Shown piece by piece: positions 11,187-27,099 of a stretch of 64,000 nucleotides of DNA. Source of the DNA: Thermoanaerobaculia bacterium (lineage in GTDB: Bacteria > Acidobacteriota > Thermoanaerobaculia > Gp7-AA8); the NCBI GenBank assembly GCA_038244815.1, contig JBBRTB010000005.1, forward strand, positions 16,387 through 80,386, read 5' to 3'. The position numbers and the translations under genes are program-made. Each line of letters starts with the position of its first letter. The stretch's first letter is position 1. The notes beneath the pieces were generated by a model, which searched no databases, was not told the DNA's origin, and saw only the letters and a list, made by a program, of their open reading frames with translations.

Positions 11187-11207
11187 AGAATCGGGGAGGA
11201 TAGCACT

Positions 11208-11410: not shown

Positions 11411-12007
11411 TTGCTCGACCAGAACGTACTGCATGACGCCGTGACGTCCACTGAGGACGCCTCCGGGATCGGTGCGATCATCGAGCAGACGGTGGCCGAG
11501 GCGCGGTCGAGCCGCGCGGATGAGGTGGAGGTGCTGTACACGCAGTACCGCACGCTGCTGCTCTCCGTGGCCTGCCGCAAGTTCCGCGTTCCCGACGGCG
11601 ACGCCGAGGGTTTGCTGCAGGAAGTGTTCGTGTCGTTCCTGCAGACCGGAGCGAAGATCGAGAATGTGCGGGCCTGGCTCGTGGCGGCGATCTGCAATGC
11701 CAGCCGTCACTACTGGCGCACGCAGGGACGCGCGGAGCAGTTACCCGCGGATTTCCCCGAGCAGTCGGATCCGGGTTCGCATGCGCTCCCGGAGCGTTTC
11801 GCGCTGGAGATGACGATGCGCCAGGCGTTGCAGTATCTGCAGCCGCGCTGCAGGGAGACGCTTTGGCTGCACTATTTCGAGGGACGTTCGGCCGCGGATG
11901 TGGCGAACGAGCTCGAGACCACGACGCGCTACGCGGAGAAGCTCATTCACAACTGTCTCAAACGTGTGCGCGAGATCTACATGAACATTACGGCGGTGCA
12001 GCGATGA
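11411..12007 (+). CDS. ECF-type RNA polymerase sigma factor
   Basis: 198 aa with a TTG start. Region 2 is EGLLQEVFVSFLQTGAKIENVRAWLVAAICNASRHYWR. Region 4 is CRETLWLHYFEGRSAADVANELETTTRYAEKLIHNCLKRVRE. Confidence 0.85.
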   Translation: MLDQNVLHDAVTSTEDASGIGAIIEQTVAEARSSRADEVEVLYTQYRTLLLSVACRKFRVPDGDAEGLLQEVFVSFLQTGAKIENVRAWLVAAICNASRHYWRTQGRAEQLPADFPEQSDPGSHALPERFALEMTMRQALQYLQPRCRETLWLHYFEGRSAADVANELETTTRYAEKLIHNCLKRVREIYMNITAVQR

Positions 12008-13344
12008 TGCTGGAACGGCACTACGACGAGGAGTCGCTAATCGAGCTTCTTCACTCCGGTGAGGGCTTTGCCGGGAGCGATCCGCATCTGTCGTCCTGCC
12101 CTTCATGCACCGTTCTTCTCGAGTCCTACCGCGTCATCACCGAAGCCCTCGGAGACGGCGAGGTGTGGGCGCCTTCGGAAATCGCGGATGCGCAGGCCGC
12201 TGCCCGTGGCGCGACATCGCTGCGCGCGTTCGCCAGTGCCATGGAGACCGAAGACGATCGCGCCGTGGCCCTGGTCGACGAGCTGCTCCTGCTGCCTCGG
12301 CAGTGGTGGGTGGCCACGGTGGAGCGCGACCAGCGCTACCACAACGCCGGCGTGGTGCGGCGCCTGATCGAGGTGTCGGAAGCGAAGATCGACACGATGC
12401 CCTCGGAGGCTGTGACCGCGGCCGCGGCCGCGATCGCCGTCGGGGACGACATCGGCGATGGCGACGCTCAGATCCATGGAACCGCCTATCGGCAACACGC
12501 ATTCGCGCTGTTCTACACGGGCGACTTCCCAGGGGCTCTCACATCCATCGAGCGAGCGCAGCAGATCTTCGAGCGCACCTCTGTGTCTGAGTACGCGATC
12601 GCGCGTCTCAACATCGTGAGGGCTCTCGTTTACCGCGCACAGGATCGTTTCACGGAAGCCCTTGCTCTGGCCCGGAGTAGCGCGCAGGTGTTCCGTTCAT
12701 TCGGCGACTCACAGCGTCTTGCCTCCGCGATCATGACCGAGGCCGCTCTTCTCATGCATCAGCACAGGTATCGGGATGCGTTGCCTCTGCTGCAGGAGGT
12801 CGAGCGAAAGTATGCTGCTGATCTCGACACTCGTGCCCGAGCGATTCACAACATCGCCATCTGTCAGAAGTTACTCGGGCACATCGCCGAGGCGCTGACT
12901 TCGTATCAGGCTGCCGCGGCCGTCTTCGATGAGCTCGGCTCGGTCACCGATGCTGCTCTGGTTCGCTACAACGTTGCTCTCCTTCTGGTTGGCGAGGGGA
13001 AACGTGAAGAGGGCCGGAAGCGCATGCGGGCCGCTCGCTCAGAGCTTCAGCATCTCGGCATGGTTCACACCGCGGTTGTGGCGAGTCTCGACCTCGCCGA
13101 GCTGGCCGTCCTGGACAGGAACTTCCCGGAAGTGGAACAACTTTGTCGTGTCGCGATGACGCCGTTCGAGACAGCGGGTATCGCTCATTCCAGCGAGGCG
13201 CTGACCGCTCTGACATTCCTACGCGAAGCTGCCGAACAGCGGCGCGCCACGCAGGAGACCGTCTGGCATGTGAGGACCTACCTCAAACGCCTGCCCCACG
13301 AGCCTGCGCTTCTGTTCGCCCCGGCTCCGCTCCCGCCCGCCTGA
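12004..13344 (+). CDS. Cytoplasmic zinc-finger anti-sigma factor fused to a helical-repeat (TPR-like) sensor module
   Basis: ATGATG at 12004 overlaps the sigma stop. The N-terminus has HLSSCPSCTVLLESY (zf-HC2-like). No TM segment is present. The remaining ~350 aa are Ala/Leu-rich helical repeats homologous to the C-terminus of the XRE regulator at 15918-17267. Confidence 0.7.
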   Translation: MMLERHYDEESLIELLHSGEGFAGSDPHLSSCPSCTVLLESYRVITEALGDGEVWAPSEIADAQAAARGATSLRAFASAMETEDDRAVALVDELLLLPRQWWVATVERDQRYHNAGVVRRLIEVSEAKIDTMPSEAVTAAAAAIAVGDDIGDGDAQIHGTAYRQHAFALFYTGDFPGALTSIERAQQIFERTSVSEYAIARLNIVRALVYRAQDRFTEALALARSSAQVFRSFGDSQRLASAIMTEAALLMHQHRYRDALPLLQEVERKYAADLDTRARAIHNIAICQKLLGHIAEALTSYQAAAAVFDELGSVTDAALVRYNVALLLVGEGKREEGRKRMRAARSELQHLGMVHTAVVASLDLAELAVLDRNFPEVEQLCRVAMTPFETAGIAHSSEALTALTFLREAAEQRRATQETVWHVRTYLKRLPHEPALLFAPAPLPPA

Positions 13345-13449
13345 ATTTTTTTTCGCTGGCGGGGTAGGGATTTGGTGACCCCGGTCACTCCTAGCGATGA
13401 GGGCGCCCTCCGAATCGAAAGTTGAACACCGTACCGCTAGGAGGGTGCA

Positions 13450-13650
13450 ATGAGCCGTCGTGTCTCCAAATCTCTGGTAGCGCTTGCCTTTACGTTTGTC
13501 CTCTGCCTTTCCACGCCATCCACGTTCGCAGCTACCCGAGATGGTGGGTTTGATCCCAGCTTCGGCACGCGCATCGTGCGCATCGTGAAGGGATTCTTCA
13601 AGCATCTCGCCCCTGGAATCACGGAGCTGATCTCGATCCCGAAACCGTAA
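13450..13650 (+). CDS. Small exported peptide precursor (66 aa; predicted 39-aa cationic amphipathic mature peptide)
   Basis: GGAGG lies 7 nt upstream of the ATG. The Sec-type signal is MSRRVSKSLVALAFTFVLCLSTPSTFA|ATRD. The mature part contains TRIVRIVKGFFKHLAPGI. The gene lies between the anti-sigma gene and the ABC operon on the same strand. Confidence 0.55.
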   Translation: MSRRVSKSLVALAFTFVLCLSTPSTFAATRDGGFDPSFGTRIVRIVKGFFKHLAPGITELISIPKP

Positions 13651-13704
13651 GCCCACAGGCACGTACAATGGCCCGGCAATTCCACGAAGGAGCTGACCGG
13701 GTCC

Positions 13705-14625
13705 ATGTCCGAAATCCTGGCTGTACGTGACGTCGTCAAGACGTTTGGCGACGTTCACGCCGTTGACGGTGTATCGTTCTCCATCCGCCGCGGTACCATC
13801 ACCGGTCTTCTCGGGCGTAACGGCGCGGGCAAGACCACGATCCTCCGGATGATCACCGGCATCTTCATGCCGGACTCCGGATCGATCGAATGGCGCGGCG
13901 AGGGGAGCGGTACGCCGTTTCGCGACCGCATCGGCTATCTGCCGGAAGAGCGCGGGCTCTACAAGCAGATGAAGATCGTGGAGATGCTGCTTTTCCTGGC
14001 CGAGATCAAGGGAAAGCGGCCTGCGGCCATCCGCCCGGCCATCGACCGCTGGCTGGAGCGCTTCGAGCTCACCGACAAACGCGACGCCAAGGTCGAGGAG
14101 TTGTCGAAAGGCAACCAGCAGAAGATCCAGCTCATCGGCACGCTGCTCCACGATCCCGATCTCATCATCCTCGACGAGCCGCAGTCGGGCCTCGATCCCG
14201 TCAACATGGTCCTGGTCCGCAACCTGTTGCGCGACCTTCGCGACGAGGGACGGACCATCCTTCTCTCCACGCACATGATGGGCGAAGCCGAGAAGATGGC
14301 CGACGACATCATCCTCATCCACCGCGGCCGCGTCGTCCTCGACGGCGACATCGGCACGGTGCGCTCGTCGTTCGGCAAGAACACGCTGCACGTCGACTTC
14401 GAAGGCGACGGCGCGTTCCTCGGCGAGCTGCCGCAGGTGCGCCGAGCCTCCATCGTCAACAACAGTGCCGAGCTGAGCCTGGAAGAGGGGAGCGATCCGC
14501 AGAAGATTCTCGAGGCGACCATGGGCCGGCTGCGGATCCGGCGCTTCGAGATCGCCACGCCGTCCCTCGAGGAGATCTTCATCGACAAAGTCGGGCACGA
14601 ATCGCTCGTGGAGGCCGCCCAGTGA
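13705..14625 (+). CDS. ABC transporter ATP-binding protein (ABC-2/NatA-like)
   Basis: Walker A GRNGAGKTT, signature LSKGNQQK, Walker B LIILDEPQSGLD, H-loop STHMM. Confidence 0.9.
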   Translation: MSEILAVRDVVKTFGDVHAVDGVSFSIRRGTITGLLGRNGAGKTTILRMITGIFMPDSGSIEWRGEGSGTPFRDRIGYLPEERGLYKQMKIVEMLLFLAEIKGKRPAAIRPAIDRWLERFELTDKRDAKVEELSKGNQQKIQLIGTLLHDPDLIILDEPQSGLDPVNMVLVRNLLRDLRDEGRTILLSTHMMGEAEKMADDIILIHRGRVVLDGDIGTVRSSFGKNTLHVDFEGDGAFLGELPQVRRASIVNNSAELSLEEGSDPQKILEATMGRLRIRRFEIATPSLEEIFIDKVGHESLVEAAQ

Positions 14626-15914
14626 AGAAGCTGATCGCCGTGTTCAAGCGGGAGTACCTCTCCGCCGTCCGCAAGAAGATGTTCATCATCATGACCTTCC
14701 TGCTGCCGCTGCTGATCGGCGGATTCATGTACGTCGTCATCGCCATCGCCGGCCGGGGGCTGGGGGTGAAGAAAATCGCCGTGCTGGACGGCACCGGGGC
14801 CCTGCGCGATACGTTCGCCAAGAGCGTGACCGCGAAGAAAGGCAGTCGCGACAGCTCGTCGCTCCTGCAGCCGCAATACGTCGACGCTCATGCCGAGCAC
14901 GACCTCGACGCCGCGGCGAAGCCCTATCTGTCCAGGCTCTCGTCCGACGACAAGAGCAATCGTCTCGACGGAGTGTTCATCGTTCCGTCGAACGCGCTCC
15001 AGAATTCCGAGACTCATCTCCGGTACTACAGCCGGTCGGCCACCGACTTCGTGTCCGAGTCGCAACTGAGCTCGATGACGAACGAGTCCGTGCAGCGCAA
15101 GCGCCTGGCGGCGCGGGGGATGTCGGACGCCGACCTCGATCGCGTCATGAAGCGGATGCAGATCGACGCCGTGCAGATCTCGAAGAGCGGCGAGGAGAAG
15201 AAGGGCGGCGCCCAGAACTTCGTGGTCGGCTTCGTGCTGACGGCGCTGCTGTTCGTGCCGTCCTTCATCTACGGGCTGGAAGTGATGCGCGGGATCATCC
15301 AGGAGAAGACCGATCGGGTCGTGGAAGTGCTCGTCTCCTCGATGTCGCCGACGCAGCTCCTGGTGGGTAAGATTCTCGGCGTCGCGGCGGTGGGTCTCAC
15401 GCAGATCAGCGTCTGGTTCGTGATGGCGGCGCTGGCTGGAACGGCGGGCGCGGCCACGGCCGCGCTGGCCGGCGAGAACATCATGCAGCTCCTGCGGCCC
15501 TCGACATTCGTCTACTTCGCCATCTTCTTTCTCCTGGCCTATCTGACATATGTCTGCATCTACGCGATCGGCGGCGCGATCTGCAATTCGGAGAAGGAGG
15601 CGCAGCAGCTCATCGCCCCGATCACCATGACCATGATGCTGCCGTGGTTCCTGCTGAGCATCATCATCACCAACCCCGACTCGAATCTGGCCATCGGGTT
15701 CTCGCTGGCTCCCGTGTTCGGCCCGCTGACGATGTACGTGCGCACGCTCGTGGCCGAGCCGCCCATGTGGCACATCGTGCTGTCGATCGCCGTCTCGATC
15801 CTCACGATCATGGCCTTCTTCTGGATCACCGTGAAGATCTTCCGCGTCGGCATCCTGTCGTACGGAAAACGGCCGACGATCCCGGAGCTGTGGCGGTGGC
15901 TGAAGGTGGCGTGA
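14622..15914 (+). CDS. ABC-2 type transporter permease (NatB-like)
   Basis: GTG at 14622 overlaps the ATPase stop (GTGA). The 430-aa product has an N-terminal TM, a large external loop, then 5 C-terminal TM segments. The ORF-track start at 13890 is a shadow frame inside the ATPase gene. Confidence 0.85.
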   Translation: MKKLIAVFKREYLSAVRKKMFIIMTFLLPLLIGGFMYVVIAIAGRGLGVKKIAVLDGTGALRDTFAKSVTAKKGSRDSSSLLQPQYVDAHAEHDLDAAAKPYLSRLSSDDKSNRLDGVFIVPSNALQNSETHLRYYSRSATDFVSESQLSSMTNESVQRKRLAARGMSDADLDRVMKRMQIDAVQISKSGEEKKGGAQNFVVGFVLTALLFVPSFIYGLEVMRGIIQEKTDRVVEVLVSSMSPTQLLVGKILGVAAVGLTQISVWFVMAALAGTAGAATAALAGENIMQLLRPSTFVYFAIFFLLAYLTYVCIYAIGGAICNSEKEAQQLIAPITMTMMLPWFLLSIIITNPDSNLAIGFSLAPVFGPLTMYVRTLVAEPPMWHIVLSIAVSILTIMAFFWITVKIFRVGILSYGKRPTIPELWRWLKVA

Positions 15915-15917
15915 GCC

Positions 15918-17267
15918 TCAGTTCTCGGGAGGATCGAACAGGAACGCGTTCGGAACGGATCGCCGCACGAGAGCTCGTGCCTGGTCGATGGCGTCGATTG
16001 TAAGGTTGCCCGAGACCTGACGAAGTAAATCGATCGCCTCGCATGCGGTCACGGGCAGCCCCGCCGCGATGGCCGCGGAAGCCAGTTGCGATGAAAGCTC
16101 ATGCAACTCCCGGGTGCTCGCTCCGCTTGCGGCCTTTACTCTCAAGAGGCGAAGATCGAGCACGATCCCTTCTTTCTTCAACTTCAAATCTGCGAGTTGT
16201 TTTCTTGCGCTCGTGAGAAGTATCACGGCGTCTTCCGGGTGGGTCTCGGCAATGAGTACGGCTCGTCTGAAGTCATCGATCGCGATCTCCGCTCTCTGGC
16301 CAAGCCGCAGATGGATCTCTGCCGCTCGTTCGGTGAGCTGCTTTGCCCGCGGTACGTTTCCGGCCCGATACCAGGCGTAGGCGCCGACGGTGCAGAGTCG
16401 TGCCAGTTCGGTTTCGTCGCCGAATACAGCTACCTTGTGCAGAAGGTCTTCGACCGTGTGAGCGGCACCGAGGGGGTCGTTGGTCATTGCTCGGATCAAA
16501 GCCTCATGATGGTACGTGAGAAGGTGACGCCATGGGTCGACTGACTGGAGTCCGTCCCGGGCGATCAACAGATGCTTCCGTGCCTCATCGAAACTTTCCG
16601 TCAGGGTAAGAACAATGGCGCGCACGAAATGCGCGATGGCTTTCCGATACGGTGGATTGGCACAACTGTCCGCAACGATCTCTGCTTTGTCCAGACAGTC
16701 GAGCGCCTCGTCGTACCGACCGAGCCGCCAGTTGGCATGAGCAAGATCCTTCAGCGCGTCGAAGCGGACCTCTGATGTCGCGGAGTGAATCAGACCAGAG
16801 ACCTGCACCGCTGAGGCGTTGATCGAGTGGCAATGGGCCGGGTCAACATCAAAGATCGCGTCTGCTCGAGTGATCAACTCACGCGCCACGCCCAACGAAT
16901 GGAACCGCTCATCCCTTGCCAGCTTTGATTCCCACGATTCGGGCGGGCTGCCCAGCAGTTCGTCCATGAGATCGGCGGGCCGGGCGGCATTCTTGTCCGG
17001 AAGGTGCGCCGCCTTTTGACGGGTTGACCGAACGGTGCGGGACGAGAGCGCTTCGACGGTGACCCCAAGCGTGGCGGCGATATCGGCGATCGTTTCGAGA
17101 TCGGTGTTGCGGCCGGATTCGATCCAGGCGATCGCCTGTCGAGACAACTTTCGCCGCGACAACTTCTGGCCCAGCTCGGCCTGCGTCCAGCGGTGTTCTT
17201 TTCGCAGGCTCCGGATATTTTGCGCGATGGGTGCCCACGTGACTTGCCCCGTGAAGCGCTTCTTCAC
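15918..17267 (-). CDS. XRE-family HTH regulator fused to a large helical-repeat (TPR-like) sensor module
   Basis: The N-terminus IRSLRKEHRWTQAELGQKLS...SRQAIAWIESGRNTDLETIADIAATLGV is a Cro/C1 HTH. Residues ~100-449 align with the anti-sigma factor at 12004-13344, for example DELLGSPPESWESKLARDERFHSLGVARELI against DELLLLPRQWWVATVERDQRYHNAGVVRRLI. Confidence 0.8.
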   Translation of the reverse strand: MKKRFTGQVTWAPIAQNIRSLRKEHRWTQAELGQKLSRRKLSRQAIAWIESGRNTDLETIADIAATLGVTVEALSSRTVRSTRQKAAHLPDKNAARPADLMDELLGSPPESWESKLARDERFHSLGVARELITRADAIFDVDPAHCHSINASAVQVSGLIHSATSEVRFDALKDLAHANWRLGRYDEALDCLDKAEIVADSCANPPYRKAIAHFVRAIVLTLTESFDEARKHLLIARDGLQSVDPWRHLLTYHHEALIRAMTNDPLGAAHTVEDLLHKVAVFGDETELARLCTVGAYAWYRAGNVPRAKQLTERAAEIHLRLGQRAEIAIDDFRRAVLIAETHPEDAVILLTSARKQLADLKLKKEGIVLDLRLLRVKAASGASTRELHELSSQLASAAIAAGLPVTACEAIDLLRQVSGNLTIDAIDQARALVRRSVPNAFLFDPPEN

Positions 17268-17437
17268 ATTGATATTGTATCGACAGACATCATCTGACGG
17301 GTCTGGGGCCTGAAGCTCTTGACAGATGTCAGATATAATCTTACATTACGAACCATCTCATGAGAGCGTAGGGTTAAACCGTGCGTCGTCGGGGAATGGC
17401 CTCTCAGGCGATGCACACGAACGATGAGGAGTGTCCG

Positions 17438-17650
17438 ATGAAAAGGTTGTTCACAGCGCTTTCGATCGTGATCACCGTGCTAACGATGGTTTCGTTCAAC
17501 GCCACGCCGGCGAAGGCTGGCTGCTTCGAAGCATTCTCGAGAGATATGACTGAGTGCGCGCAAGGGAGAGCCTGGTACGAACGCTCGTTGTGTGGCGCCG
17601 ACGCCGAGCTTGCCCTGGCCGGATGTGTTCGCCGGACGGTGATGGGTTGA
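17438..17650 (+). CDS. Small exported 4-cysteine peptide precursor (70 aa)
   Basis: GAGGAG lies upstream of the ATG at 17438. The signal is MKRLFTALSIVITVLTMVSFNATPAKA|GCFE. The 43-aa mature part has 4 Cys (C-x11-C-x11-C-x11-C spacing). It is divergent from the XRE-TPR regulator. Confidence 0.5.
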   Translation: MKRLFTALSIVITVLTMVSFNATPAKAGCFEAFSRDMTECAQGRAWYERSLCGADAELALAGCVRRTVMG

Positions 17651-17666
17651 CGCCGGAGTTCACCAG

Positions 17667-18653
17667 ATGAGGCTGACTGCGTTCGCATTGACCTCGGTCG
17701 CGTTGGTCTCCTGCCTCGGGCAGGAGACCGCGTTCCCGGCGGGTCTGCCAAGCCCACCGCCGCCGCACTTTCAATCCATTGCACGCGGGCAAGCCGAAGT
17801 TTGGTTGTTACCCGATGGTGGCAAGTCCGTCTATGTGCAGCGGGGAGTGGCACCCCCAACGATGGCGTTCGATCTCACGCAGGACGGGCAGCCCTATCCC
17901 TGGGACGCCCCTCCGACATCGCTCGCTTTGTTTCGCGGGGAGTTTTGGATAGCCAGCGGATCTCGTACGCTGCGGCGCTTCGCCCCCAACGGCGTTTTGC
18001 GTGGAGCCGTGAATGCCCCTCTTCCCGTGACGCAGGTCGTTGCCACATACGAAGGAATCTGGGTCTACGACGATCTGCCGGCTCCTGTATCGCAGAGGCT
18101 GTGGTGGTCTCGGGACGGACATTCATTCGCGCAAGTCGCGTTGCACGCGGATGAAACCACGACGGCCCTGGCGAAGCTTCTTTCGATGCAACTCGTCCTC
18201 ACGGGCGGTGGCGCGAACGACATCGTGATGGCGCACATGATCGGCCCGCCCGAAGCCATCGTCTTCACACCACGAGGCGCGAATCGTTCGATCCCACTGG
18301 CCTATGTACGCACGGCAGCGCGAGACGCAATGAGGGTGTATCGCTCCGGCCGGAATGACCTCGAGCAATACTCAGCGCCGGTCCGTGATCTCATGGAGCT
18401 CGCCGATGGGTCGGTGATCGTTCTGCGGAATCGCGAGGATGCTCGATCCACTGGCGGCTGGACCTCCCTGCAAGGGCGACGGGTTGATCTCTATGATCCT
18501 CATGGCCAACAAACCGGGACCGCGGAGCTGCCCGAAACGGGAAGGTTTCTCCTTCGAACGGAAGAAAAAGACCGCGTGCTCGTCCTCACGAGCAGCGGAC
18601 ATGTCATCACGCAAGCGTTCGGGATGCCGCATGGAGGGGAGGTTCTCCATTGA
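17667..18653 (+). CDS. Hypothetical lipoprotein
   Basis: Canonical lipobox LVSC at residues 13-16. The 328-aa product has no motif I recognise. It is the first of four translationally coupled genes. Confidence 0.6.
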   Translation: MRLTAFALTSVALVSCLGQETAFPAGLPSPPPPHFQSIARGQAEVWLLPDGGKSVYVQRGVAPPTMAFDLTQDGQPYPWDAPPTSLALFRGEFWIASGSRTLRRFAPNGVLRGAVNAPLPVTQVVATYEGIWVYDDLPAPVSQRLWWSRDGHSFAQVALHADETTTALAKLLSMQLVLTGGGANDIVMAHMIGPPEAIVFTPRGANRSIPLAYVRTAARDAMRVYRSGRNDLEQYSAPVRDLMELADGSVIVLRNREDARSTGGWTSLQGRRVDLYDPHGQQTGTAELPETGRFLLRTEEKDRVLVLTSSGHVITQAFGMPHGGEVLH

Positions 18654-19348
18654 CTCACCGCCCTCGCGCCCACTCCTATCTCGTGCTGGCGGGTGCGTTC
18701 TCGCGCCTTCTCTGGCCGATCCTCACCGTTGTGGCGGCCTACGTCGGATACGAATGCTATCTGACGGGATACAGCGAAGACGGCGTCATCATCTGGTTGC
18801 TCCTCTTCCCCGTTTTCGCTGGAACGGGACTGCTCACCCTGGCTCGGGAGGGACGCCTCGATCTTCTTCTCGGGTCGGGCGTGAGCCGCGACCGTGTGTT
18901 CGCCTCGGCATTCGCTCGGGCTGCCGGTGTGCCCATCCTCTTTGCGATGCTGCTGGCAATCGTGAGTCTTGTGAACCACGGCGACGCTGTCAGCGTGGCC
19001 TTCCGCGCCACCGCGGTCGCTCTCTTCACCGGCGCTTGTTGTTTCTCTCTTGGTCTCATCGAGCCGCGGTACGCCGCGGGCGTCGCATGGATCGGCGCCC
19101 GCATCGTGTTCCTCATGACCCGGCATGGATTCCTGACCTATCATCAACTCGTCGGTGCGCAACATGGTTCCCCGCTGCCCCCGTGGCCCGAGCTGATGCT
19201 GGCCGCGCTGATGTTTCCCGAATCCGTGCTCCGGCCGGCCATGCCGATTTCAATCGTCGTGACGATCGCATCGATCGGCCTCACCGCGGCCGGGATGGCC
19301 CGATTCGTCTTTACGCGGGCTGAGTGGCCCGGGCACCGCACCGCATGA
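18650..19348 (+). CDS. Six-TM membrane protein, probable permease partner of the downstream ABC ATPase
   Basis: TTG start at 18650 overlaps the upstream stop (TTGA). About 6 hydrophobic helices. Its stop overlaps the ATPase start (ATGA at 19345-19348). Confidence 0.6.
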   Translation: MTHRPRAHSYLVLAGAFSRLLWPILTVVAAYVGYECYLTGYSEDGVIIWLLLFPVFAGTGLLTLAREGRLDLLLGSGVSRDRVFASAFARAAGVPILFAMLLAIVSLVNHGDAVSVAFRATAVALFTGACCFSLGLIEPRYAAGVAWIGARIVFLMTRHGFLTYHQLVGAQHGSPLPPWPELMLAALMFPESVLRPAMPISIVVTIASIGLTAAGMARFVFTRAEWPGHRTA

Positions 19349-19968
19349 CGATGCCACCGGCCGCCGTCGAAGCAGTGTGGAAGTCGTATGGGACCACCGA
19401 GGTTCTGCGTGGAGTTTCCGTGGTGTTCTCGCCGGGACGGCTCACCGCACTCGTCGGGCCGAACGGCGCGGGGAAGACCACGCTGCTGCGCATCGTGGCG
19501 GGACTGCAGCATCCCACTCGGGGCAGGGTTCTTGCCCATGACGTCCTCTACTTCGGCGGATACGATCTTCTGCCTGTCCGGGGAACGATCGTGAGATTCC
19601 GCCGCGCACTCGGCCTCGGCGACGCCGGTGCGGATCGGCGAGCGCTTGCCACGTTGTCACGAGGGCAGCTCCAGCAAGTGGGGCTCGACGCCAGCCTCGA
19701 TCTCGCACCCGAGACGCTGCTGCTCGATGAACCGTGGTCGTCTCTCGAACCTGACGCGCGTGACCGGTTGAACGAACGTCTCGCTCTGTTTGCCGCGTCC
19801 GGCCGGATCGTGGTGTGCTCGAGTCACGAATTGGACGAGGTGGCGCGCGTCGCCGACGATGTGGCGTTCCTCCGTGATGGTGCCGTGCAGAGTGTTCGGC
19901 GAGAGAGTCTCGGAGGAAACCGTTTCGATCGCGATGGTTTGCTGGTTCGCTACAAGGGCATCACGTGA
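19345..19968 (+). CDS. ABC transporter ATP-binding protein
   Basis: Walker A GPNGAGKTT, signature LSRGQLQQ, Walker B LLLDEPWSSLE. ATG at 19345 is preferred over 19324 because of the ATGA coupling. Confidence 0.85.
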   Translation: MTMPPAAVEAVWKSYGTTEVLRGVSVVFSPGRLTALVGPNGAGKTTLLRIVAGLQHPTRGRVLAHDVLYFGGYDLLPVRGTIVRFRRALGLGDAGADRRALATLSRGQLQQVGLDASLDLAPETLLLDEPWSSLEPDARDRLNERLALFAASGRIVVCSSHELDEVARVADDVAFLRDGAVQSVRRESLGGNRFDRDGLLVRYKGIT

Positions 19969-21653
19969 ACTGGCGGAATTCGATCTTCATCGCGCTTCTG
20001 AGTCTTGCCTCCTCGGTCGCCGCGGCCGGCCTGCTGACAGTGGAAGAACCGACGACGATCGAGATGTCCTCCGAGGCGGCGCGGATGTGGGGACGATGCC
20101 GGGATGAGCATCCGCGCGCCTTGTCATCGGGTATCTCCGTGATCGCCGATGGGCCTCTTCCTGTTCCGCTGCGCGTCGATCTGATCGAGAAAGTTCCCGG
20201 AGCCTGGAGGCTGCGCCAGACCATCGAAGTCTCGACGCCGGTCATTCCCGTGCTGCCGCCACGCGGCCACGTGGCCGTTCTTCTGCGCACGTGCGACGGA
20301 AAGGAACCATATTGGTGGGCCGATGTCGACGCGGCACATGCCACGGCACCCCTCCGCGTTGCCGCGTGCAAGACGATCCGTGTTGAGCCAGAGGATATCG
20401 ACGTGCGTCTTTTCGTCGATGGAGAAGACGAGCCGCGTGAGCTTGATAGCCGTTCGCACCGGTTCGAGCGGGTTCCGGTTCGCGACGCACTCATGTGTGC
20501 CGCCGCGCCGAACGGAGCGCGCTGCGCGACCATTGCTGCCGCCGAGGTACAGCGCGCCTCCGAAGATGTCGGCTCTGATCTTCGCGTCTTACGCGTCGAT
20601 CGCGCGGCGACACTCCGCGTTCTCGAGCCGGGAATCTCGGTTGCGCGCCCGCGTGTGCTGACGCCGGTGATGCAGCGCGCGGGAGCCTGGGTGGCGCTCC
20701 GCCTTCCGCCGGGCAAGCCGTGGAACAGCGTCGTGCTGGACTGGAAGGCGCCGTCGAATGCGCTCGTCCGTCTGCGCGGTCGCGATCTCATGCCTTATCC
20801 GTCCTTCCAGATCGTACCGGCCGGTAGCGAGCCGGGATTGCGCGTCATCGCTGTGATCGGAGAGAACGACGAAGCGGTCACCGACCCGGAGGTCACACTC
20901 CTGTTCCTCCCCACGCGGGAGCCCGAGATTCTCCTGGCCGCGGCTCACATGGAGAACGGCGAGTTCCTGGCGCGCGAACTCGGTGCCGGCGAGTACCGCC
21001 TGAAACTTCTGGCTGCAGCGGCATTGAGTGCGCCTGTCGTCAGGACTCTGAGAACGAGCCTCGAAACTGTCCGATTTGCCGCGGCGCCGCAGATTCGGGG
21101 TCGCGTAATCCTGGCTTCCTCGATGAGGGCCGATCTCGTGCGTGTGGAGGTGATGCGCGGCAGCCGTCTTCGATCCGACGAACCGCGGGATTCGCCCGCC
21201 GATCCCGTCGACTCGATGCGCGAAGTGGCCATTGCCCCCGACGGAACGTTTCGCGTGGGCGTGCCCGGAGCGGGAACGTATACGTTGAACATCGTTGCCG
21301 GCAATGCGCGCACGGAGCGTGTCGTGGATGTGCATCCGGGCGATGCCGTAACGGACGTGGGTGACATTTCGCTTTCGCCCGGAACGACTCTTCGAGGAGC
21401 AGTGGCAGTGTGCGGAAACGGCGAGCTCGTACTTACACCTCTTCCGGACCTGGACGCAGCGCCGGGAGTGCCTTTCTTTTTCGACCTTCGGCGCATTCAG
21501 CTCGGCGCCGATGGCTCCTTCGTGGCTGACGGAATGCACGCCGGAGGGTGGCTCGCCAGCGCGCACTGCGGCGGTAAGACCGTCGATCTCGTTCCGTCGC
21601 CGTTCCAGCTTTCGTCCCAGGACGTTTCGATTCTCGATTTCGCGCCCAGGTGA
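19965..21653 (+). CDS. Large secreted hypothetical protein with CarboxypepD_reg-like beta-sandwich segments
   Basis: GTG at 19965 overlaps the ATPase stop (GTGA). N-terminal signal IFIALLSLASSVAAAG. C-terminal repeats of the type GRVI...APDGTFRVGVPGAGTYTLNIVAG and LRGAVAV...ADGSFVADGMHAGGW. Confidence 0.65.
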   Translation: MNWRNSIFIALLSLASSVAAAGLLTVEEPTTIEMSSEAARMWGRCRDEHPRALSSGISVIADGPLPVPLRVDLIEKVPGAWRLRQTIEVSTPVIPVLPPRGHVAVLLRTCDGKEPYWWADVDAAHATAPLRVAACKTIRVEPEDIDVRLFVDGEDEPRELDSRSHRFERVPVRDALMCAAAPNGARCATIAAAEVQRASEDVGSDLRVLRVDRAATLRVLEPGISVARPRVLTPVMQRAGAWVALRLPPGKPWNSVVLDWKAPSNALVRLRGRDLMPYPSFQIVPAGSEPGLRVIAVIGENDEAVTDPEVTLLFLPTREPEILLAAAHMENGEFLARELGAGEYRLKLLAAAALSAPVVRTLRTSLETVRFAAAPQIRGRVILASSMRADLVRVEVMRGSRLRSDEPRDSPADPVDSMREVAIAPDGTFRVGVPGAGTYTLNIVAGNARTERVVDVHPGDAVTDVGDISLSPGTTLRGAVAVCGNGELVLTPLPDLDAAPGVPFFFDLRRIQLGADGSFVADGMHAGGWLASAHCGGKTVDLVPSPFQLSSQDVSILDFAPR

Positions 21654-21674
21654 CGCGAACCGCGCTACTGACCC

Positions 21675-22330
21675 ATGTTCCGAAACCTTTCCGCCGCCGG
21701 TCTCCTGATCGTTGGTGCGACGCTGTCGGGCCAGACGGCGGCCTTACGCTCGGTTCGAGTAAGTGTTGTTCCCGCGTCCGCGATGAAGGCCGTACCCGCC
21801 GGTGAGCTGCTCTTTCGTTCCGGTGATGGAACGGGGGAGCCGGTTTCCGTCGCGCTGACGTCCAGCAGCGCGGAGCTGAAGCTCCCCGCCGGGACTCACT
21901 GGGTGATGTCGCTCGCGGCGTCCGGATGGTGCCGGAGCGCGACATCGGTGTCGAGGCCGGCTCCGAGCCTGTCATCGTGAACGAGTACGTCTGGCCCACC
22001 GGTCAGGTCTACGGCAAGTTGCGATTCGCCGATCCGAAACAAAAGAGCGGCGTTGCCACCGAGCGTTTCGTTGAGCGTGGCGGATTCACCCGCGAGTGCG
22101 AAGCCTGCTCACGTCCCCCTGCACAGCGAGATTCGGTGCGCGGTCGGCAAGGACGCGACATTTGCCTGCGACATCCCGGCCGGACCGATCGACGTAACGC
22201 TGCGGACCCGCGGTTTTGTCCCGCTCTATCGCTGGGGCCTGCGGCTCGATCCCGGCGGCCGGCGGGACCTCGGCACTTATGTTCTCCATACCGGCAGTTC
22301 CGTCGCCGGCTGGGCTCAAATCGAAGGGAG
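21675..22330 (+). pseudogene. Probable frameshifted/truncated secreted-protein gene (CarboxypepD_reg-like)
   Basis: The protein-like translation switches frames. It starts at 21675 (signal MFRNLSAAGLLIVGATLSG...LKLPAGTHWVMSLAASGW). It moves to the 21926 frame (PERDIGVEAGSEPVIVNEYVWPTGQVYGKLRFADPKQKS). It returns to the 22053 frame (...CAVGKDATFACDIPAGPIDVTLRTRGFVPLY...GTYVLHTGSSVAGWAQIEG) and becomes Arg-rich nonsense after ~22330. Confidence 0.35.
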
Positions 22331-22630
22331 GAAGCCGCACGTCCCGATCAAGGTCCGGCTTGGCCGGCTGGTCACCGGCGGGGAAGCGGGCGGATGCGCG
22401 AACGTCTCGGACAGCCGGTTGCGCAAGGCGAGGCGCGGGCGGATGGGTTCTCGTTTGTTCAGAGTCCCGTCCGGCAGGAACCAGTCGAAACGTCCAAACG
22501 CGGTAATCATCGTCGGAGTCTGGCCCCCGGCGACGATGTCACCGGATTGCAAGGTTGCATGCCGTTGCTGCGCGCCAGCCACCAAGGCAATCAGAAACGA
22601 GGCCAGGGTCAGCACCGCCCATCGGGACAT
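22316..22630 (-). CDS. Possible small secreted hypothetical protein
   Basis: M21 of the 124-aa ORF gives the signal MSRWAVLTLASFLIALVAGAQQ. By hand count GC3 is about 78 percent, but the antisense plus frame shares its third positions, so codon bias cannot discriminate between them. The call rests on a protein-like sequence versus an Arg-rich plus frame. Confidence 0.35.
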   Translation of the reverse strand: MSRWAVLTLASFLIALVAGAQQRHATLQSGDIVAGGQTPTMITAFGRFDWFLPDGTLNKREPIRPRLALRNRLSETFAHPPASPPVTSRPSRTLIGTCGFLPSI

Positions 22631-22707
22631 CGGGCCAGGATTCGAAGCGGCGCTCTCGCGACAAACTCGTATGGTGAGCCTCCGTTTCATTTCACTACGT
22701 CACGGAC

Positions 22708-22729
22708 CTAGTCCTAGTCCTAGTCTAGC
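22708..22729. repeat. Hexamer tandem repeat (CCTAGT)x3.5
   Basis: CCTAGT CCTAGT CCTAGT CTAG. Each unit contains the CTAG palindrome. Confidence 0.7.
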
Positions 22730-23416
22730 TGCCTTGCCTGGGGCTGTCGTTGGTCTCCTCATCGCATTGGTTGTGCGAGTAATGAGCGCTCGATCGACGG
22801 CGCCCTTACTTCGCTGACAACAAAACCGAAGCGTCACACCTGCGGTTTTCGTTTTGAGCGGAGGCGGTGCCGCAGTCTCCTTCCTCGCGAGTGGGACGCG
22901 TGTCGCGGCCGTTGCAGGCGCGTGCGAAAAGGAAAGCGACATTGCACGCGGCAACGGCCGCGCCACGCTTTGGTCATCGCGAGATCGAGCGTTCCACCGC
23001 CCTCTTCCTCATTCGCCAGGAGCATCGCTCCGTGGCCTCGCCTAATCTTCCGTTGCAGCCGACACGGCACCGCGCCGCGGTCGTGGTAGATCGGTCGTGT
23101 GGGGCAAGCGGTGCCGCGCGGCTGAACGGGAGATTAGGCGAGAAGTCCGTCGCGGCCTCACGGTCCACCGCCCTGTCCTTGCGCAAACTTCGATCCTCGC
23201 GAGTGCCGGCGGGCCGCGCGTGCTCGCCGCCTCTGGCGTCTCCGCCGCACCGCTCCGCGCGGCGAGCGTTCGGTTCCCGCCCCCCGCGCCCCCGCCCCCG
23301 CGCTCCTTCTCGCCGCGCTCCGCTCCTGGCCCGGCGCTGCCCACACCCCAGCGCCGGCCGGCCCGCTGCTGCTTCGTGCCCCCGGCCAACACCGCGGCGG
23401 GTCGTGTCTCGTCGAA

Positions 23417-23659
23417 ATGCCGCATATCACTCCGTCGGCGATCGCACAGTACGCATACTCGACGACGACCGGCCACCTGGCCTCGATCACCGCTCCCGAC
23501 GGCAACACGCTGAGCTACACCTTCGACGGCAGTCTGCTGACCCGAACGCAGTGGGCGGGTGCGGTTAGCGGCTCGGTGGGTCTCGGGTACGACAACGACT
23601 TCCGGGTCACGAGCGAGAACGGCTCCGCGTATGCGTATGACCCCGACAGTCAGCTTTGA
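23417..23659 (+). pseudogene. Orphan YD/RHS-repeat fragment (about 70 aa of repeat, no core, no toxin tip)
   Basis: The translation YAYSTTTGHLASITAPDGNTLSYTFDGSLLTRTQWAG...GLGYDNDFRVTSENGSAYAYDPDSQL has the YD-repeat periodicity (Y-Y/F-D ... G-L-----D--G). In-frame sequence upstream of 23430 is not RHS-like. Confidence 0.6.
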
Positions 23660-23820: not shown

Positions 23821-26800
23821 ATGTACCATTCTCCGATGCGCGAACGCCTCTCGATTCCCCTGCTGATTGCCGCCGGTCTGATCGCTTCGCCTCTCCTCGC
23901 TGGCTTCGCGAGTGTCAACTTGATCCTGCCCGCGGTCGGCCGCGTGGACGGCTCGGGCGGCAGCCATTTCTACACCAGCGTCTGGGTGACCAACCCCTCG
24001 CAGACGGAGGCCGCGCAGTTCGTGATCCGCTTCCTCGCATCCGGTCAGCCGAATCCGAATCCCGCCACGGCCAGCGACTCGATCGCCCCCGGCGCCACGA
24101 AGGTGTACGAAAACATCGCGGAGTCGCTGTTCGGCATCACGGGAGTGCTCGGGGCCGCACAGATCGAGTCGACGCAACCGCTGCTCGTCACGTCCCGCAT
24201 CTACAATCAGGGCGACGGGCAGCTCCCCTCCGCCTCCGAGGGCCTTTTCTACTCGGCACTGCCGGCGGATTTCGGCATCGGCAGCGGACAACGCGGAGTC
24301 CTTCAGGGCGTGCGTCAGTCGGCGGACTTTCGTTACAACATCTTCCTCGTCGAGGATGCCGGACAACCGCTGACGCTCTTGATCACCCTCGTGGACACTG
24401 CCGGAAACGTCATCAACGAGACGCCGGTGACTCTCGGTTCGTACGAACAGCGCCTCCTGCCGCTGGCGACGATCACGCCCGCTGCGCTGACTGACGCCAC
24501 GATTCAAGTGACGGCGACCGAAGGCAACGGACGCGCGATCATCGCCGGATCGCAAATCGCCAACGGAAGCCAGGACGCATCGGGCTTCGAAATGTCGTTC
24601 CGTCCGGAACTGCTCGGCGCGCAGGGACCGACCGGGCCGCAGGGCCCTGCCGGACCGGCCGGGCCTCCCGGGCCGCAAGGACTGCCAGGTACGCAGGGGC
24701 TGCGCGGAGTTCCCGGACCGCAGGGACTGACGGGGCCGCAGGGAGTCATCTGGCGTGGTGACTGGGTCAGTTCGCAAGCCTACGCCGCAGCTGATGCTGT
24801 TTCGTTTCAAGGCTCCTCGTACATTGCGGTTGCGCCCAGTCTGGGCGTGCAACCGGGAACGAATCCGGCGTCGTGGAACGTGCTCGCCGACAAATCGAAC
24901 TTCGTCGGAACGACCGCAGCCGGCGATCTGGCGGGAACCTATCCGAACCCGACGGTCGCGTCCGTCGGAGGAATGCCGGCGGCCACGATCGCTTCAGCGG
25001 CTGGAGCAGCCGCCGGGGCGACCAGCGCGAACACCGCCGGCAGCATCATCAAGCGCGACGGATCGGGCAACTTCGCCGCGGGGACCATTACCGCGACGCT
25101 GAACGGAAACGCGGCGAGCGCCACGTCATTCACAGGCCCGCTCGCCGGCGACGTCACCGGCACGCAGCCGGCGACAGTGGTATCGACCGTGGGCGGCCAG
25201 TCCGCGGCGAACGTCGCCTCGGGCGCAACTCTGGCGAACGGCGCAACGAACGGGAACGTGGCGAATACGATCGTGAAACGCGATCCCTCCGGAAACTTCG
25301 CCGCGGCCACCATCACCGCGGCACTCAACGGAAACGCCACGAGCGCCACCTCATTCACAGGCCCGCTCGCCGGCGACGTCACCGGCACGCAGCCGGCGAC
25401 GGTGGTATCGAGCGTCGGCGGGCAGTCCGCGGCGACCGTCGCCTCGGGCGCCGCGCTGGCGAACGGCGCAACAAACGGGAACGTGGCGAATACGATCGTG
25501 AAACGCGATCCCTCCGGCAACTTCGCCGCGGGGACCATTACCGCGACGCTGAACGGAAACGCCGCGAGCGCCACGAACTTCAGCGGCTCGCTTGCCGGCG
25601 ATGTCGGCGGGACGCAGAGCGCGACGCTCGTGTCGTCCGTCGGCGGTCAGTCCGCGGCGAGCGTCGCCTCTGGCGCCTCGCTGGCGAACGGCGCAACGAA
25701 CGGGAACGTGGCAAATGCGATCGTGAAACGCGATCCCTCCGGCAACTTCGCCGCGGGGACCATTTCCGCGGCACTCAACGGCAACGCTACGAGCGCCACG
25801 AATTTCAGCGGTTCGCTTGCCGGCGATGTCGGCGGGACGCAATCGGCAACGCTCGTGTCGTCCGTCGGCGGCCAGTCCGCGGCGAACATCGCCTCCGGCG
25901 CCGCACTGGCGAACGGCGCAACGAACGGAAACGTGACGAATACGATCGTGAAACGCGATCCCTCCGGCAACTTCGCCGCGGGGACCATCACCGCGGCGCT
26001 CAACGGCAACGCCACCAGCGCTACGAGTTTCAGCGGTTCGCTTGCCGGCGATGTCGGCGGGACGCAGAGCGCAACGGTCATTCAGTCGGGAGTCGTGGTG
26101 AAGAGTCTCAATGGATTGCATGACGCGGTGACGGTCGCCGGATCAGGCGGCACCTCGATCAGCGCGGCCGGAAATACCCTCACCATCAACAGCAGCAGCG
26201 GAACGATCACCGGCGTGAACGCGGGCACTGGACTGGCGGGCGGAGGAGCATCCGGGGTCGTGACACTGTCTGCTTCTTTCGGCGGAGACGGCAGCGCCGG
26301 CACGATTTCGCGATCCGATCACACGCACATCGGCCAGTCGTGGACGCAGCCGAGCGGCAATGGACTGGTGCTGACCTGTCAGAGTGTTTCGTGCAAGGGT
26401 CTGCTGGGGCAGACGAATGCGACCGATGTCAACACGTCGGCATTCTACGGACAAGTCAATGCGACAACGAGCCAGGGCGTCGGGGTCTGGGGACAGAATA
26501 ACTCGAGCAACCCGAACAGTGCGGGCGTTTTCGCGCAGGTTGGGCCAGGCTCTGGAAGAGCACTGTGGGCGACTGCCGCCGGGTCCGGAATCGCAGCCCA
26601 ATTCGATGGCTCGGTCAACATCGTCGGAACCCTTACCAAGAGCGCCGGAAGCTTCAAAATCGACGACCCCATCGATCCGGAGAACAAGTACCTCTACCAC
26701 TCCTTCGTCGAATCGCCTGACATGAAGAACATCTACGATGGAACGGCGACGCTCGACGAGAACGGCAATGCAACGATCGACCTCCCGGCATGGTTCCAGG

Positions 26801-27099
26801 TCTTGAACCGCGACTTCCGTTACCAGTTGACGGCGGTCGGAGCGCCGTCGCCCGGGTTGTACGTCGCGGAGAAAGTCTCGGACAACCGCTTCCGCATCGC
26901 AGGGGGGACCCCGGGCGCCGAAGTGTCGTGGCAGGTCACAGGAATCCGTCACGATCCCTATGCCGACGCACACCGCATCCCGGTCGAGGAGGCAAAGCCG
27001 GATGGCGAAAAGGGGACGTACCTCCACCCGGGCGACTACGGTCAGCCTGCGAGCCGCGGGATGAGCCGACCGGTCCGGCGTATGCCGGCCTCGGAGTAG
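23821..27099 (+). CDS. Large secreted collagen-like fibre protein: N-terminal beta-rich domain, collagen triple-helix segment, CBM5/12-like motif, 5 x 75-aa repeats, tail-fibre-like C-terminal domain
   Basis: Signal [26 protein letters not shown] x14 at 24616-24744 ([43 protein letters not shown]), followed by [27 protein letters not shown]...WNVLA. The repeats are [38 protein letters not shown]. The C-terminus is [35 protein letters not shown]. Confidence 0.85.
24915..26080 (+). repeat. Tandem 225-bp (75-codon) coding repeat, about 5 copies, inside the fibre gene
   Basis: The ATC of the I(I/V)KRD motif recurs at 25045, 25270, 25495, 25720 and 25945, exactly 225 bp apart. Copies are nearly identical at the DNA level. 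A degenerate half-unit precedes them from ~24915. Confidence 0.9.

Follow-up and report, generated by a model that had tools for sequence, protein, structure and literature searches.

A sigma factor, a soluble zinc anti-sigma factor with a TPR sensor and a small exported peptide: a candidate peptide-responsive cassette in Thermoanaerobaculia

The subject of this analysis is a three-gene cassette in a 64-kb stretch of DNA, hereafter the window, from a soil bacterium of the class Thermoanaerobaculia, phylum Acidobacteriota. The cassette encodes a sigma factor of the extracytoplasmic function (ECF) type, a soluble zinc-type anti-sigma factor with a large tetratricopeptide repeat (TPR) sensor, and a small exported peptide, PepA, that may be what the sensor detects. 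The GC content of the window is 60-68% and the closest relatives of its genes all belong to metagenome-assembled genomes of Thermoanaerobaculia. An earlier note on this DNA had singled out two adjacent modules, A and B, each combining a regulator, a small exported peptide and an ATP-binding cassette (ABC) transporter, and had proposed them as an undescribed system for peptide sensing or peptide immunity. The open reading frames (ORFs) that it listed are all present where and on the strands that it placed them, and the 4-nucleotide (nt) overlaps ATGA, GTGA, TTGA and GTGA are as it claimed. Our comparisons draw on 66 loci from genome and metagenome scans and 3 further loci from later look-ups; 13 loci (L001-L008, L020-L023 and L069) have the orthologous backbone of module A. 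The genes and elements of that module are these:

11411..12007, plus strand: ECF (group IV) sigma factor of 198 amino acids (aa), with Sigma70_r2, Sigma70_r4_2 and TIGR02937 matches
12004..13344, plus strand: soluble anti-sigma factor of 446 aa, with a zinc domain, a helical linker, a TPR sensor at about residues 86-446 and a proline-rich tail
13362..13391, plus strand: bipartite motif GGGTAGGG-N16-CACTCC with -35-like and -10-like boxes, recognised by its conservation and 16-nt spacer
13401..13449, plus strand: pepA 5' leader, with an anti-Shine-Dalgarno segment GGGCGCCCTCC predicted to pair with the Shine-Dalgarno (SD) sequence AGGAGGGTGC
13450..13650, plus strand: pepA, encoding a pre-peptide of 66 aa with a Sec signal peptide, predicted cleavage between TFA and A, and a mature part of about 38 aa
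13662..13704, plus strand: abcA leader, with a conserved CGTACAAT (-10-like) after the pepA stop and then a hairpin enclosing the abcA SD
13705..14625, plus strand: abcA, encoding an ABC ATPase of 306 aa, DrrA/ABCA-like (nucleotide-binding domain of a type V, or ABC-2, exporter), with ABC_tran and DrrA1-3_C
14622..15914, plus strand: permA, encoding an ABC-2 permease of 430 aa, with a match to ABC2_membrane_3 (E 4e-49) and a GTGA overlap with abcA

The sigma factor consists of region 2 (Sigma70_r2, residues 42-107) and region 4 (Sigma70_r4_2, residues 136-184) only, as is characteristic of ECF group IV. It scores 57 bits against TIGR02937, for which the cut-off is 42.9, and its orthologues in syntenic loci are 56-82% identical. 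The anti-sigma gene overlaps it by 4 nt (ATGA), an overlap that is kept in the orthologues. Within its N-terminal 50 or so residues, the anti-sigma factor carries the motif HLSSCPSC, in which H28-x3-C32-x2-C35, together with an upstream ligand at H6, make up the pattern of a zinc-binding anti-sigma factor (ZAS); all four ligands are invariant in an alignment of 35 homologues. Its Pfam content is TPR_12, and Pfam zf-HC2 is detected only in remoter homologues (P0074 and P0196). No 19-residue hydrophobic window in the protein reaches 1.6, the threshold used to call a transmembrane (TM) segment. Given the lack of such a segment, the ATGA overlap with the sigma gene and the invariant HHCC ligands, we regard the protein as a soluble zinc-type anti-sigma factor with a large C-terminal sensor.

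The AlphaFold2 (AF2) model of the anti-sigma factor (pLDDT 89) is an all-helical superhelix. Among its fold matches in the PDB, found with Foldseek, LGN/Pins comes first by E-value (7e-8), with KLC and, from E 6e-6, Rap proteins also present. A search of PDB sequences with the anti-sigma profile returned TPR proteins only, with no solved anti-sigma domain among them: RapJ (5e-11), RapI, RapF, NprR (7e-9) and AfsR (1e-8) all stand behind consensus TPR proteins and KLC. The closest folds, namely LGN, KLC, Rap-Phr and NprR-NprX, have been solved with extended peptides in the groove. The modelled sensor thus fits a peptide-binding receptor; specific homology to the RRNPP family of peptide receptors, beyond that of generic TPRs, is not established. 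The family is large, with 2720 proteins found at E <= 1e-30 in the profile search; the best 150 representatives of clusters at 50% identity (of which there are at least 150) all have E < 1e-96 and most are full-length, at 435-460 aa. Variants within the sensor family carry HTH_3, a recognisable zf-HC2 or tandem sensors.

Downstream of the anti-sigma gene, pepA is a conserved coding gene under purifying selection. Its frame is kept in 13/13 orthologous loci, where indels are multiples of three; pairwise dN/dS ranges from 0.2 to 0.7, variation is greatest at third codon positions, and independent gene callers predict the gene in 5 loci (L020-L023 and L069). The mature part has an amphipathic RIVRIVKGFFKHL helix and the C-terminus IPKP. 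Considering the family to which it belongs, called here family 1 and defined by a sigma/anti-sigma/peptide triad with an ABC gene pair, 40 distinct peptides share a common layout: a signal peptide cleaved between AFA and A, (P)RDDsP, an amphipathic helix RIVRxxKxxxK, a variable acidic stretch and a C-terminal PxPKP or xPK. Net charge across the family runs from -1 to +5 and many mature forms have a cationic amphipathic helix.

The arrangement was assessed more broadly with a signal-peptide heuristic, by which an exported ORF of 52-102 aa had to start no more than 300 nt downstream of the anti-sigma gene. Such an ORF follows 44 of the 56 anti-sigma homologues that have at least 330 nt of downstream sequence, compared with 103 of 3000 windows drawn at random from those loci (3.4%), so that the pairing is far beyond chance. 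The linkage of sensor and small exported ORFs that the earlier note had supposed thus holds, and it extends to remote homologues: in two of these (ZAS-TPR proteins at 24% identity), which have no sigma gene alongside, a signal-peptide gene of 96 or 106 aa lies immediately upstream. An origin of the small ORFs as spurious frames in high-GC DNA was considered and is rejected by their conservation, by the codon-position pattern and by the control rate. Two further families of triads were found. In family 2 the peptides end in PIG or PGG and are followed by a protein of 158 aa and a REC-EAL protein, with no ABC genes; such triads lie at 5177-7499 in L009, 11642-13969 in L010 and 11592-14071 in L016, the 158-aa protein being conserved and the REC-EAL protein of the c-di-GMP phosphodiesterase type. 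Family 3 peptides have a tryptophan-rich C-terminus; as in family 2, the genes downstream are unrelated to those of family 1 and include no ABC genes.

The backbone common to at least 13 loci runs DUF1684, M20 peptidase (minus strand), sigma factor, anti-sigma factor, small ORF, ABC ATPase, ABC-2 permease, fadD and fadB. AbcA and PermA, being an ATPase and an ABC-2 permease encoded together, constitute an ABC-2 (type V) exporter at the superfamily level. In the TM profile of PermA, TM1 is followed by some 160 aa of extracytoplasmic loop and then by about five further TM segments; no PDB sequence matches the protein. AbcA is 69-88% identical across loci and its nearest solved structures are the nucleotide-binding domains of ABCA4/7/3/1 and Rv1218c, while its scores lie below all curated equivalog cut-offs (GldA, 203 vs 402.6; DrrA, 194 vs 312; galliderm_ABC, 147 vs 309.75). 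Neither this pair nor that of module B reaches such a cut-off, a result that favours the reading in the earlier note.

Mean p-distances rise from 0.21 for the ABC ATPase through 0.26 (sigma factor) and 0.34 (permease) to 0.56 for the anti-sigma factor and 0.64 for the mature peptide, making sensor and peptide the fastest-evolving parts of the locus. Across p-distances from 10 orthologous loci, the distance of the mature peptide correlates best with that of the sensor (r 0.84). In partial Mantel tests this correlation persists on controlling for the permease (partial r 0.59, p 0.0008) or the ATPase (partial r 0.61, p 0.002), whereas that between peptide and permease vanishes on controlling for the sensor (r 0.02). 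The results are suggestive of a mature peptide whose divergence tracks the TPR sensor and not the transporter. Since paralogous triads lack ABC genes and the peptide follows the sensor, the core of module A appears to be the sigma factor, the anti-sigma sensor and the secreted peptide. The earlier note had counted the transporter into the module; its absence from the paralogous triads places it outside the core, as a better-conserved neighbour that may be an additional target of the sigma factor.

The presence of a peptide gene beside ABC genes, in module B as well as in module A, raises the possibility that both peptides are Sec-dependent antimicrobials, with the ABC-2 transporters (and a lipoprotein in module B) exporting them or protecting the producer in the manner of LanFEG/LanI, and the TPR regulators controlling production. 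The cationic amphipathic helix of many PepA forms would suit a bacteriocin of this kind. In module A, however, this explanation has to contend with paralogous triads that keep the peptide and have no transporter, with a charge that is not conserved, and with an ABC pair whose conservation far exceeds that of the peptide and which a promoter-like box of its own precedes. Genes for modification or dedicated export are lacking as well. The bacteriocin or immunity role that had been suggested earlier finds no positive evidence in module A; for module B, considered below, there is an analogy only.

The bipartite motif, of consensus GGTAGGG-N16-CACNCC, lies in the spacer that separates the anti-sigma stop from pepA and occurs once in the 64-kb window. 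Exactly one copy per locus is present in 48/66 related loci and, in family 1, it is always in this same position. The length of the spacer is kept and its sequence is not, the geometry expected of a -35/-10 pair. Relaxed copies are found 5' of the peptide genes of families 2 and 3, and also 5' of the sigma gene in L042, of an operon of XRE-TPR regulator, sigma and anti-sigma genes in L013/L057, of an XRE-TPR gene in L015 and of an AraC-type gene in L011. Since the motif also fronts sigma or XRE-TPR operons in paralogues, it is probably the promoter that this sigma clade recognises, and we infer that the peptide gene is the clade's most conserved target. The family-1 sigma operon has a different promoter-like box, of the extended -10 type.

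A sigma-type motif directly before the peptide gene is what would be seen at any target gene, and ECF operons commonly carry target genes alongside. The main rival to a sensed peptide is consequently a peptide that is output only: a conserved member of the regulon, for example an envelope or periplasmic effector, while the TPR domain senses a cytoplasmic partner, a metabolite or, via the zinc, redox state. We consider this credible, if doubtful. It leaves unexplained why remote ZAS-TPR homologues with no adjacent sigma gene are still paired with a small exported ORF, and why the mature peptide has diverged in step with the sensor and not with the sigma factor or the transporter. Its redox version has also to accommodate the HHCC ligands, the set present in ChrR, a non-redox anti-sigma factor.

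The pepA leader (minimum free energy -23 kcal/mol for the window copy) may be a further point of control. RNAalifold pairs GGGCGCCCTCC with the pepA SD AGGAGGGTG in a 9-bp helix, both segments being invariant or nearly so in 11 orthologues. The leader is possibly a conserved translational gate, whether as an RNA thermometer or as the target of a protein or small RNA (sRNA). Tight translational control of this sort would also suit a monitor of secretion or envelope stress, in which the TPR domain would bind unexported pre-peptide, by its signal sequence or proline-rich tail, whenever Sec or the membrane is compromised, and the sigma factor would be freed. Such a scheme needs no re-import, as receptor and pre-peptide are made in one compartment. 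Against it, co-divergence with the sensor is weaker for the signal-peptide part than for the mature part (partial r 0.38 vs 0.59) and the scheme is without precedent; we think it very improbable.

After the pepA stop, the CGTACAAT box is conserved in 11 loci. The hairpin that follows, ACCCGGC...GCCGGGT in the window, is seen at -12 to -24 kcal/mol in 9/11 loci with stem sequences that differ and pairing that is kept, as judged from single-sequence folds, the MAFFT/RNAalifold alignment not having brought the hairpin into register. The idea that the C-terminal PKP of PepA reflects a DNA-level constraint, as a -35 element for an abcA promoter, was rejected because the distance from the stop to CGTACAAT varies between 8 and 26 nt. 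Upstream of pepA, the anti-sigma stop is spanned by a hairpin at 13342-13362 whose loop is rich in T and which ends in the GGG of the motif; the sequences of its arms vary between loci. As predicted, this structure may serve to terminate the sigma operon or to insulate pepA from it. With distinct boxes for the sigma operon, pepA and abcA, the three units look separately controlled.

A second version of the sensor is found on the other side of permA, in a regulator that belongs to module B:

15918..17267, minus strand: XRE-type helix-turn-helix (HTH) and TPR regulator of 449 aa, with HTH_3 (E 1.3e-8) and TPR; first gene of a variable island
17282..17347, no strand assigned: divergent control region between the XRE-TPR gene and pepB, with direct repeats GACAGAYRTCA at 17282-17292 and 17321-17331 overlapping TTGACA-17-TACATT

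The sharing of the sensor by the two regulators, as the earlier note had it, is real. BLASTP aligns them at 30% identity over 146 aa (E 5e-15), and hhalign comparison of the XRE-TPR protein with the anti-sigma family (probability 100%, E 3.4e-60) covers 397 columns, which is the whole sensor including the proline-rich tail. Only 6 homologues of the XRE-TPR protein were found. Its AF2 model (pLDDT 82) is again an all-helical superhelix, for which the highest TM-scores are with NprR (0.52/0.63) and the Rap protein of phage phi3T (0.50/0.61). The view that no part of the locus resembles the RRNPP families is therefore wrong for this regulator, given its HTH_3 and TPR domains, its TM-scores with NprR and the profile matches to RapJ and NprR, which rank among the best from bacteria. 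The gene is convergent on the permease gene in the window and in L021-L023, and in L012 and L013/L057 an XRE-TPR gene stands immediately before a sigma/anti-sigma-TPR pair, so that the two versions of the sensor are recurrently linked in differing arrangements. Small secreted peptide genes also lie near the HTH version, in the window and in L015, which is another association that an output-only PepA does not explain.

The tails of both sensors are rich in proline, LLFAPAPLPPA in the anti-sigma factor (13300-13344) and FLFDPPEN in the XRE-TPR protein (15918-15950), with F438 and P434 nearly invariant, and both resemble the proline-rich PxPKP C-terminus of PepA (13630-13650). It is pure speculation that a receptor tail such as LLFAPPPLP may lie in the TPR groove and inhibit its own receptor, to be displaced by the PxPKP end of the peptide.

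In the divergent control region, the promoter-like TTGACA-17-TACATT has 10/12 matches in a promoter scan and no convincing inverted repeats were seen in the spacer. The pepB homologue in L025 has direct repeats of another sequence in front of it (at about 150-215), GGGGTCAAGAA occurring twice; judging from their placement in the sequence, the repeats at both genes may be operators. The GGTAGGG-N16-CACNCC motif is absent from the window spacer, for which reason we do not claim control of module B by the sigma factor in this genome. The remaining genes of module B and of the island are as follows:

17438..17650, plus strand: pepB, encoding a pre-peptide of 70 aa with a signal peptide, a mature part of about 43 aa, cysteines spaced C-x11-C-x12-C-x11-C and a net charge of about -1
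17667..18653, plus strand: lipoprotein of 328 aa (lipobox LVSC) with no known domain
18650..19348, plus strand: membrane protein of 232 aa with 5-6 TM segments in the TM profile, probably the permease partner of AbcB
19324..19968, plus strand: abcB, encoding a short ABC ATPase of 214 aa, with ABC_tran
19965..21653, plus strand: sec562, encoding a secreted protein of 562 aa with a signal peptide (TM profile) and a weak CarboxypepD_reg-like domain below the Pfam cut-off
21675..22817, plus strand: fragmented ORFs in several frames, probably a decayed gene, the first fragment keeping a signal peptide
23417..23659, plus strand: RHS/YD-repeat remnant, an ORF of 80 aa (PF05593 RHS_repeat, 23.5 bits, cut-off 22)
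23821..27099, plus strand: secreted protein of 1092 aa (from its translation) with a Pfam Collagen match; last island gene before fadD (27358)

Like pepA, pepB is a conserved coding gene, as both had been taken to be: its homologue in L025-L027 encodes 69 aa at 35% identity (E 4e-9), with the four cysteines and their spacing kept and a charge of about -1. We read PepB as a secreted peptide stapled by disulfides. These three loci reproduce the order of module B as a 69-aa peptide, a lipoprotein, a 6TM protein, an ATPase and a secreted protein of 582 aa. In L025 the last of these is 32% identical to Sec562 in the same position. The lipoprotein has homologues in L024 and L025 (35-36% identity) in the same gene order and matches nothing in Pfam or among PDB sequences. 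Homologues of the 6TM protein number only 3 in 5.8 billion proteins, each adjoining an abcB homologue, plus one in L015. AbcB is 42-62% identical in L015, L024 and L025; its start is more likely to be ATG 19345, which would give ATGA coupling with the 6TM stop, than GTG 19324. Counted together, the operon turns up at two or three sites besides the window. In L024 the core of module B has a transposase fragment in the position of the peptide. The arrangement in L015 is an HTH-TPR gene divergent from genes for a 12-cysteine secreted protein, a secreted protein, the 6TM protein and the ATPase, with a sigma/anti-sigma-TPR pair alongside and a sigma-type motif 41 nt upstream of the HTH-TPR gene. 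Neither peptide, nor the lipoprotein or the 6TM protein, has a match in Pfam or NCBIfam.

The order of peptide, lipoprotein, 6TM protein and ATPase parallels LanI plus LanFEG, and module B is set in a variable island where RHS toxin genes or their remnants occur; both points would suit an antimicrobial PepB. The ATPases nevertheless score only 147 (AbcA) and 81 bits (AbcB) against the lantibiotic-protection cut-off of 309.75, and PepB and its homologue, at about -1, do not share the cationic character of many PepA forms. Bacteriocins with immunity are, in our judgement, an improbable account of the locus.

The variable island occupies 15918-27300 (about 11.4 kb) between the ABC-2 permease gene and fadD. 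In 8 orthologous loci the island is missing and fadD comes straight after the permease gene, and other cargo takes the place of the module B operon in L021-L023. Contrary to the earlier proposal, the two modules are thus not one fixed system. At the same site L021 has an XRE-TPR gene, an ORF of 163 aa and an intact RHS protein of 2675 aa, while in L022 and L023 the XRE-TPR gene, convergent on the permease gene, has other neighbours. The RHS genes or remnants suggest, from gene content, a competition island. The decay of a gene at 21675-22817, proposed in the earlier note, is plausible from the multi-frame fragments; they have no Pfam match, and no intact homologue was found that would prove it. 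The 1092-aa protein has a collagen-like Gly-X-Y stretch and five repeats of about 70 aa, and its C-terminal region presumably resembles tail-fibre-like proteins; a similar-looking secreted gene, possibly frameshifted, adjoins the XRE-TPR gene of L022.

A PADLOC scan for anti-phage defence systems gave no specific model match, only generic P-loop and HTH similarities. The Rfam scan of 9000-24000 gave only a sub-threshold match to the Chloroflexus-1 sRNA at 20405-20515 (plus strand), inside sec562, which was rejected as probably due to chance (22.7 bits, E 0.032; the gathering score is 181.5). Beyond module A, a second and unrelated ECF sigma gene at 7346-7990 (minus strand), with a 462-aa partner at 5961-7349 that has a weak vWF_A match, adjoins DUF1684, and the pair is syntenic in L020, L022 and L069.

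Drawing these lines together, the three genes very probably form a real functional unit, of which the peptide gene is the conserved partner or target: an ECF sigma factor, an anti-sigma factor with a zinc domain that would hold the sigma factor and a TPR superhelix as sensor, and, immediately downstream, a gene for a Sec-exported peptide. The mechanism that we propose is as follows. The anti-sigma factor would sequester the sigma factor in the cytoplasm, as its domain architecture and translational coupling imply. Free sigma factor would transcribe pepA from GGTAGGG-N16-CACTCC, for which conservation, the -35/-10 geometry and the motif's occurrence before paralogous sigma and XRE-TPR operons argue. 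The SD-sequestering leader helix is predicted to gate translation of the peptide, and the pre-peptide is predicted to be exported and cleaved after AFA. Lastly, and speculatively, the peptide, or a short proline-rich C-terminal fragment that is re-imported, might fill the TPR groove and release the sigma factor, giving autoinduction.

Binding of the peptide, whole or in part, by the TPR sensor is suggested by the adjacency of the two in several independent lineages, by their co-divergence, by the RRNPP-like layout of the HTH version and by nearest folds that bind peptides. A number of points weigh against this reading. The anti-sigma factor is cytoplasmic and the peptide is exported, so that to act as ligand the peptide would have to be brought back into the cell or be sensed before export, and the locus has no linked importer. 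The sensor's fold matches are those of a generic TPR protein, with eukaryotic LGN outranking Rap and NprR. A peptide ORF is not detectable beside 12/56 anti-sigma homologues, L012, L013, L017 and L018 among them. The missing importer, the missing ORFs and the generic fold matches count at the same time for a peptide that is output only. Many of the 44 positives are orthologues, reducing the independent lineages to about 5. The partial Mantel tests are based on only 10 loci with p-distances that are saturated, and fast evolution alone may make two proteins correlate. Conservation is the whole basis on which we infer GGTAGGG-N16-CACNCC to be a promoter, and autoregulation is not evident here since the family-1 sigma operon has a different one. 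Finally, the pepA leader helix shows no covariation in RNAalifold across the 11 orthologues and so cannot be proven as an RNA structure in that way.

On balance, a cassette of sigma factor, soluble zinc-TPR anti-sigma factor and exported peptide, in which the peptide releases the sigma factor, is the best explanation of the locus as a whole, and we hold the arguments for and against it to be evenly poised. Taken separately, a role for the peptide, whole or in part, as ligand of the TPR sensor is plausible from the sequence comparisons and still slightly doubtful. The most ambitious version would be that Thermoanaerobaculia use a large and hitherto unrecognised family of RRNPP-like cassettes, with a zinc anti-sigma-fused TPR receptor, an ECF sigma factor switched by peptide and autoinduction, the HTH versions controlling competition islands; put in full, it is tentative and rather unlikely.

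Peptide quorum sensing of the RRNPP type, with its cytoplasmic receptors, is seen as a Gram-positive speciality, and pairs of ECF sigma and anti-sigma factors as sensors of stress. If the proposal is true, a receptor/pro-peptide cassette working through an anti-sigma factor would join these two signalling paradigms and extend peptide communication to the Acidobacteriota, an abundant and poorly studied group. It would also offer modular parts, namely one sensor on two outputs, a defined 29-bp promoter and short cognate peptides, and, with at least 150 clusters at 50% identity, many diversified and possibly orthogonal sets of sigma factor, anti-sigma factor and peptide. Even were the peptide an output of the regulon only, there would remain a new ECF subgroup, widespread and marked by a soluble anti-sigma factor with TPRs and by a conserved target.

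Several known systems share parts of this organisation. LanFEG with LanI, and DrrAB, likewise set an ABC ATPase and an ABC-2-type permease beside a peptide gene, and the module B lipoprotein has its parallel in LanI. In contrast, scores here are far below the cut-offs for lantibiotic protection, DrrA, GldA and NodI, and lanthipeptide enzymes are lacking, the peptides appearing to be unmodified Sec substrates. ChrR-sigmaE is closer to the sigma/anti-sigma pair, with translational coupling, the His...His-x3-Cys-x2-Cys zinc motif, no membrane segment and a presumed C-terminal sensor. In ChrR that sensor is a cupin, whereas here it is a TPR superhelix of about 360 aa accompanied by a gene for a small exported peptide. 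TPRs also regulate ECF sigma factors in ECF42, as a C-terminal extension of the sigma factor itself with no anti-sigma factor, and in ECF267, on a FecR-like anti-sigma factor; neither group is described with a zinc anti-sigma factor joined to TPRs or with a linked peptide gene (PMC7826278). No account of a zinc anti-sigma/TPR protein accompanied by a peptide gene came up in our searches of the literature, in agreement with the earlier suggestion that the system is undescribed.

The nearest likeness is to RRNPP(A) cassettes such as PlcR-PapR, NprR-NprX, Rap-Phr, Rgg-SHP and AimR-AimP, in which the gene for a cytoplasmic TPR receptor similarly adjoins an exported pro-peptide ORF. Both traits are found at this locus, a cytoplasmic TPR-like receptor and an adjacent ORF for an exported pro-peptide, and here too receptor and peptide are the fast-evolving, co-diverging parts. 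The XRE-TPR regulator has the HTH_3 and TPR layout of PlcR and NprR; the N-terminal HTH or Rap-type effector domain of RRNPP receptors is present in it only and not in the anti-sigma factor. The main receptor differs in having a zinc anti-sigma domain in place of an HTH or Rap effector, with release of an ECF sigma factor as its proposed output. Pro-peptides at this locus are longer: the mature part measures some 40 aa, includes a conserved amphipathic helix and terminates in PxPKP. No Opp importer is linked, and the host, an acidobacterium, is diderm; the RRNPP literature that we found concerns Gram-positive bacteria and their mobile elements only. Because the anti-sigma factor has no HTH or Rap domain, its homology to RRNPP receptors beyond generic TPRs is not established and peptide binding is a proposal, we do not file the system as a member of RRNPP. 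What appears to be new is a receptor/pro-peptide logic like that of RRNPP set upon a sigma/anti-sigma switch in a diderm phylum, the peptide sensing itself being the conditional part of that comparison.

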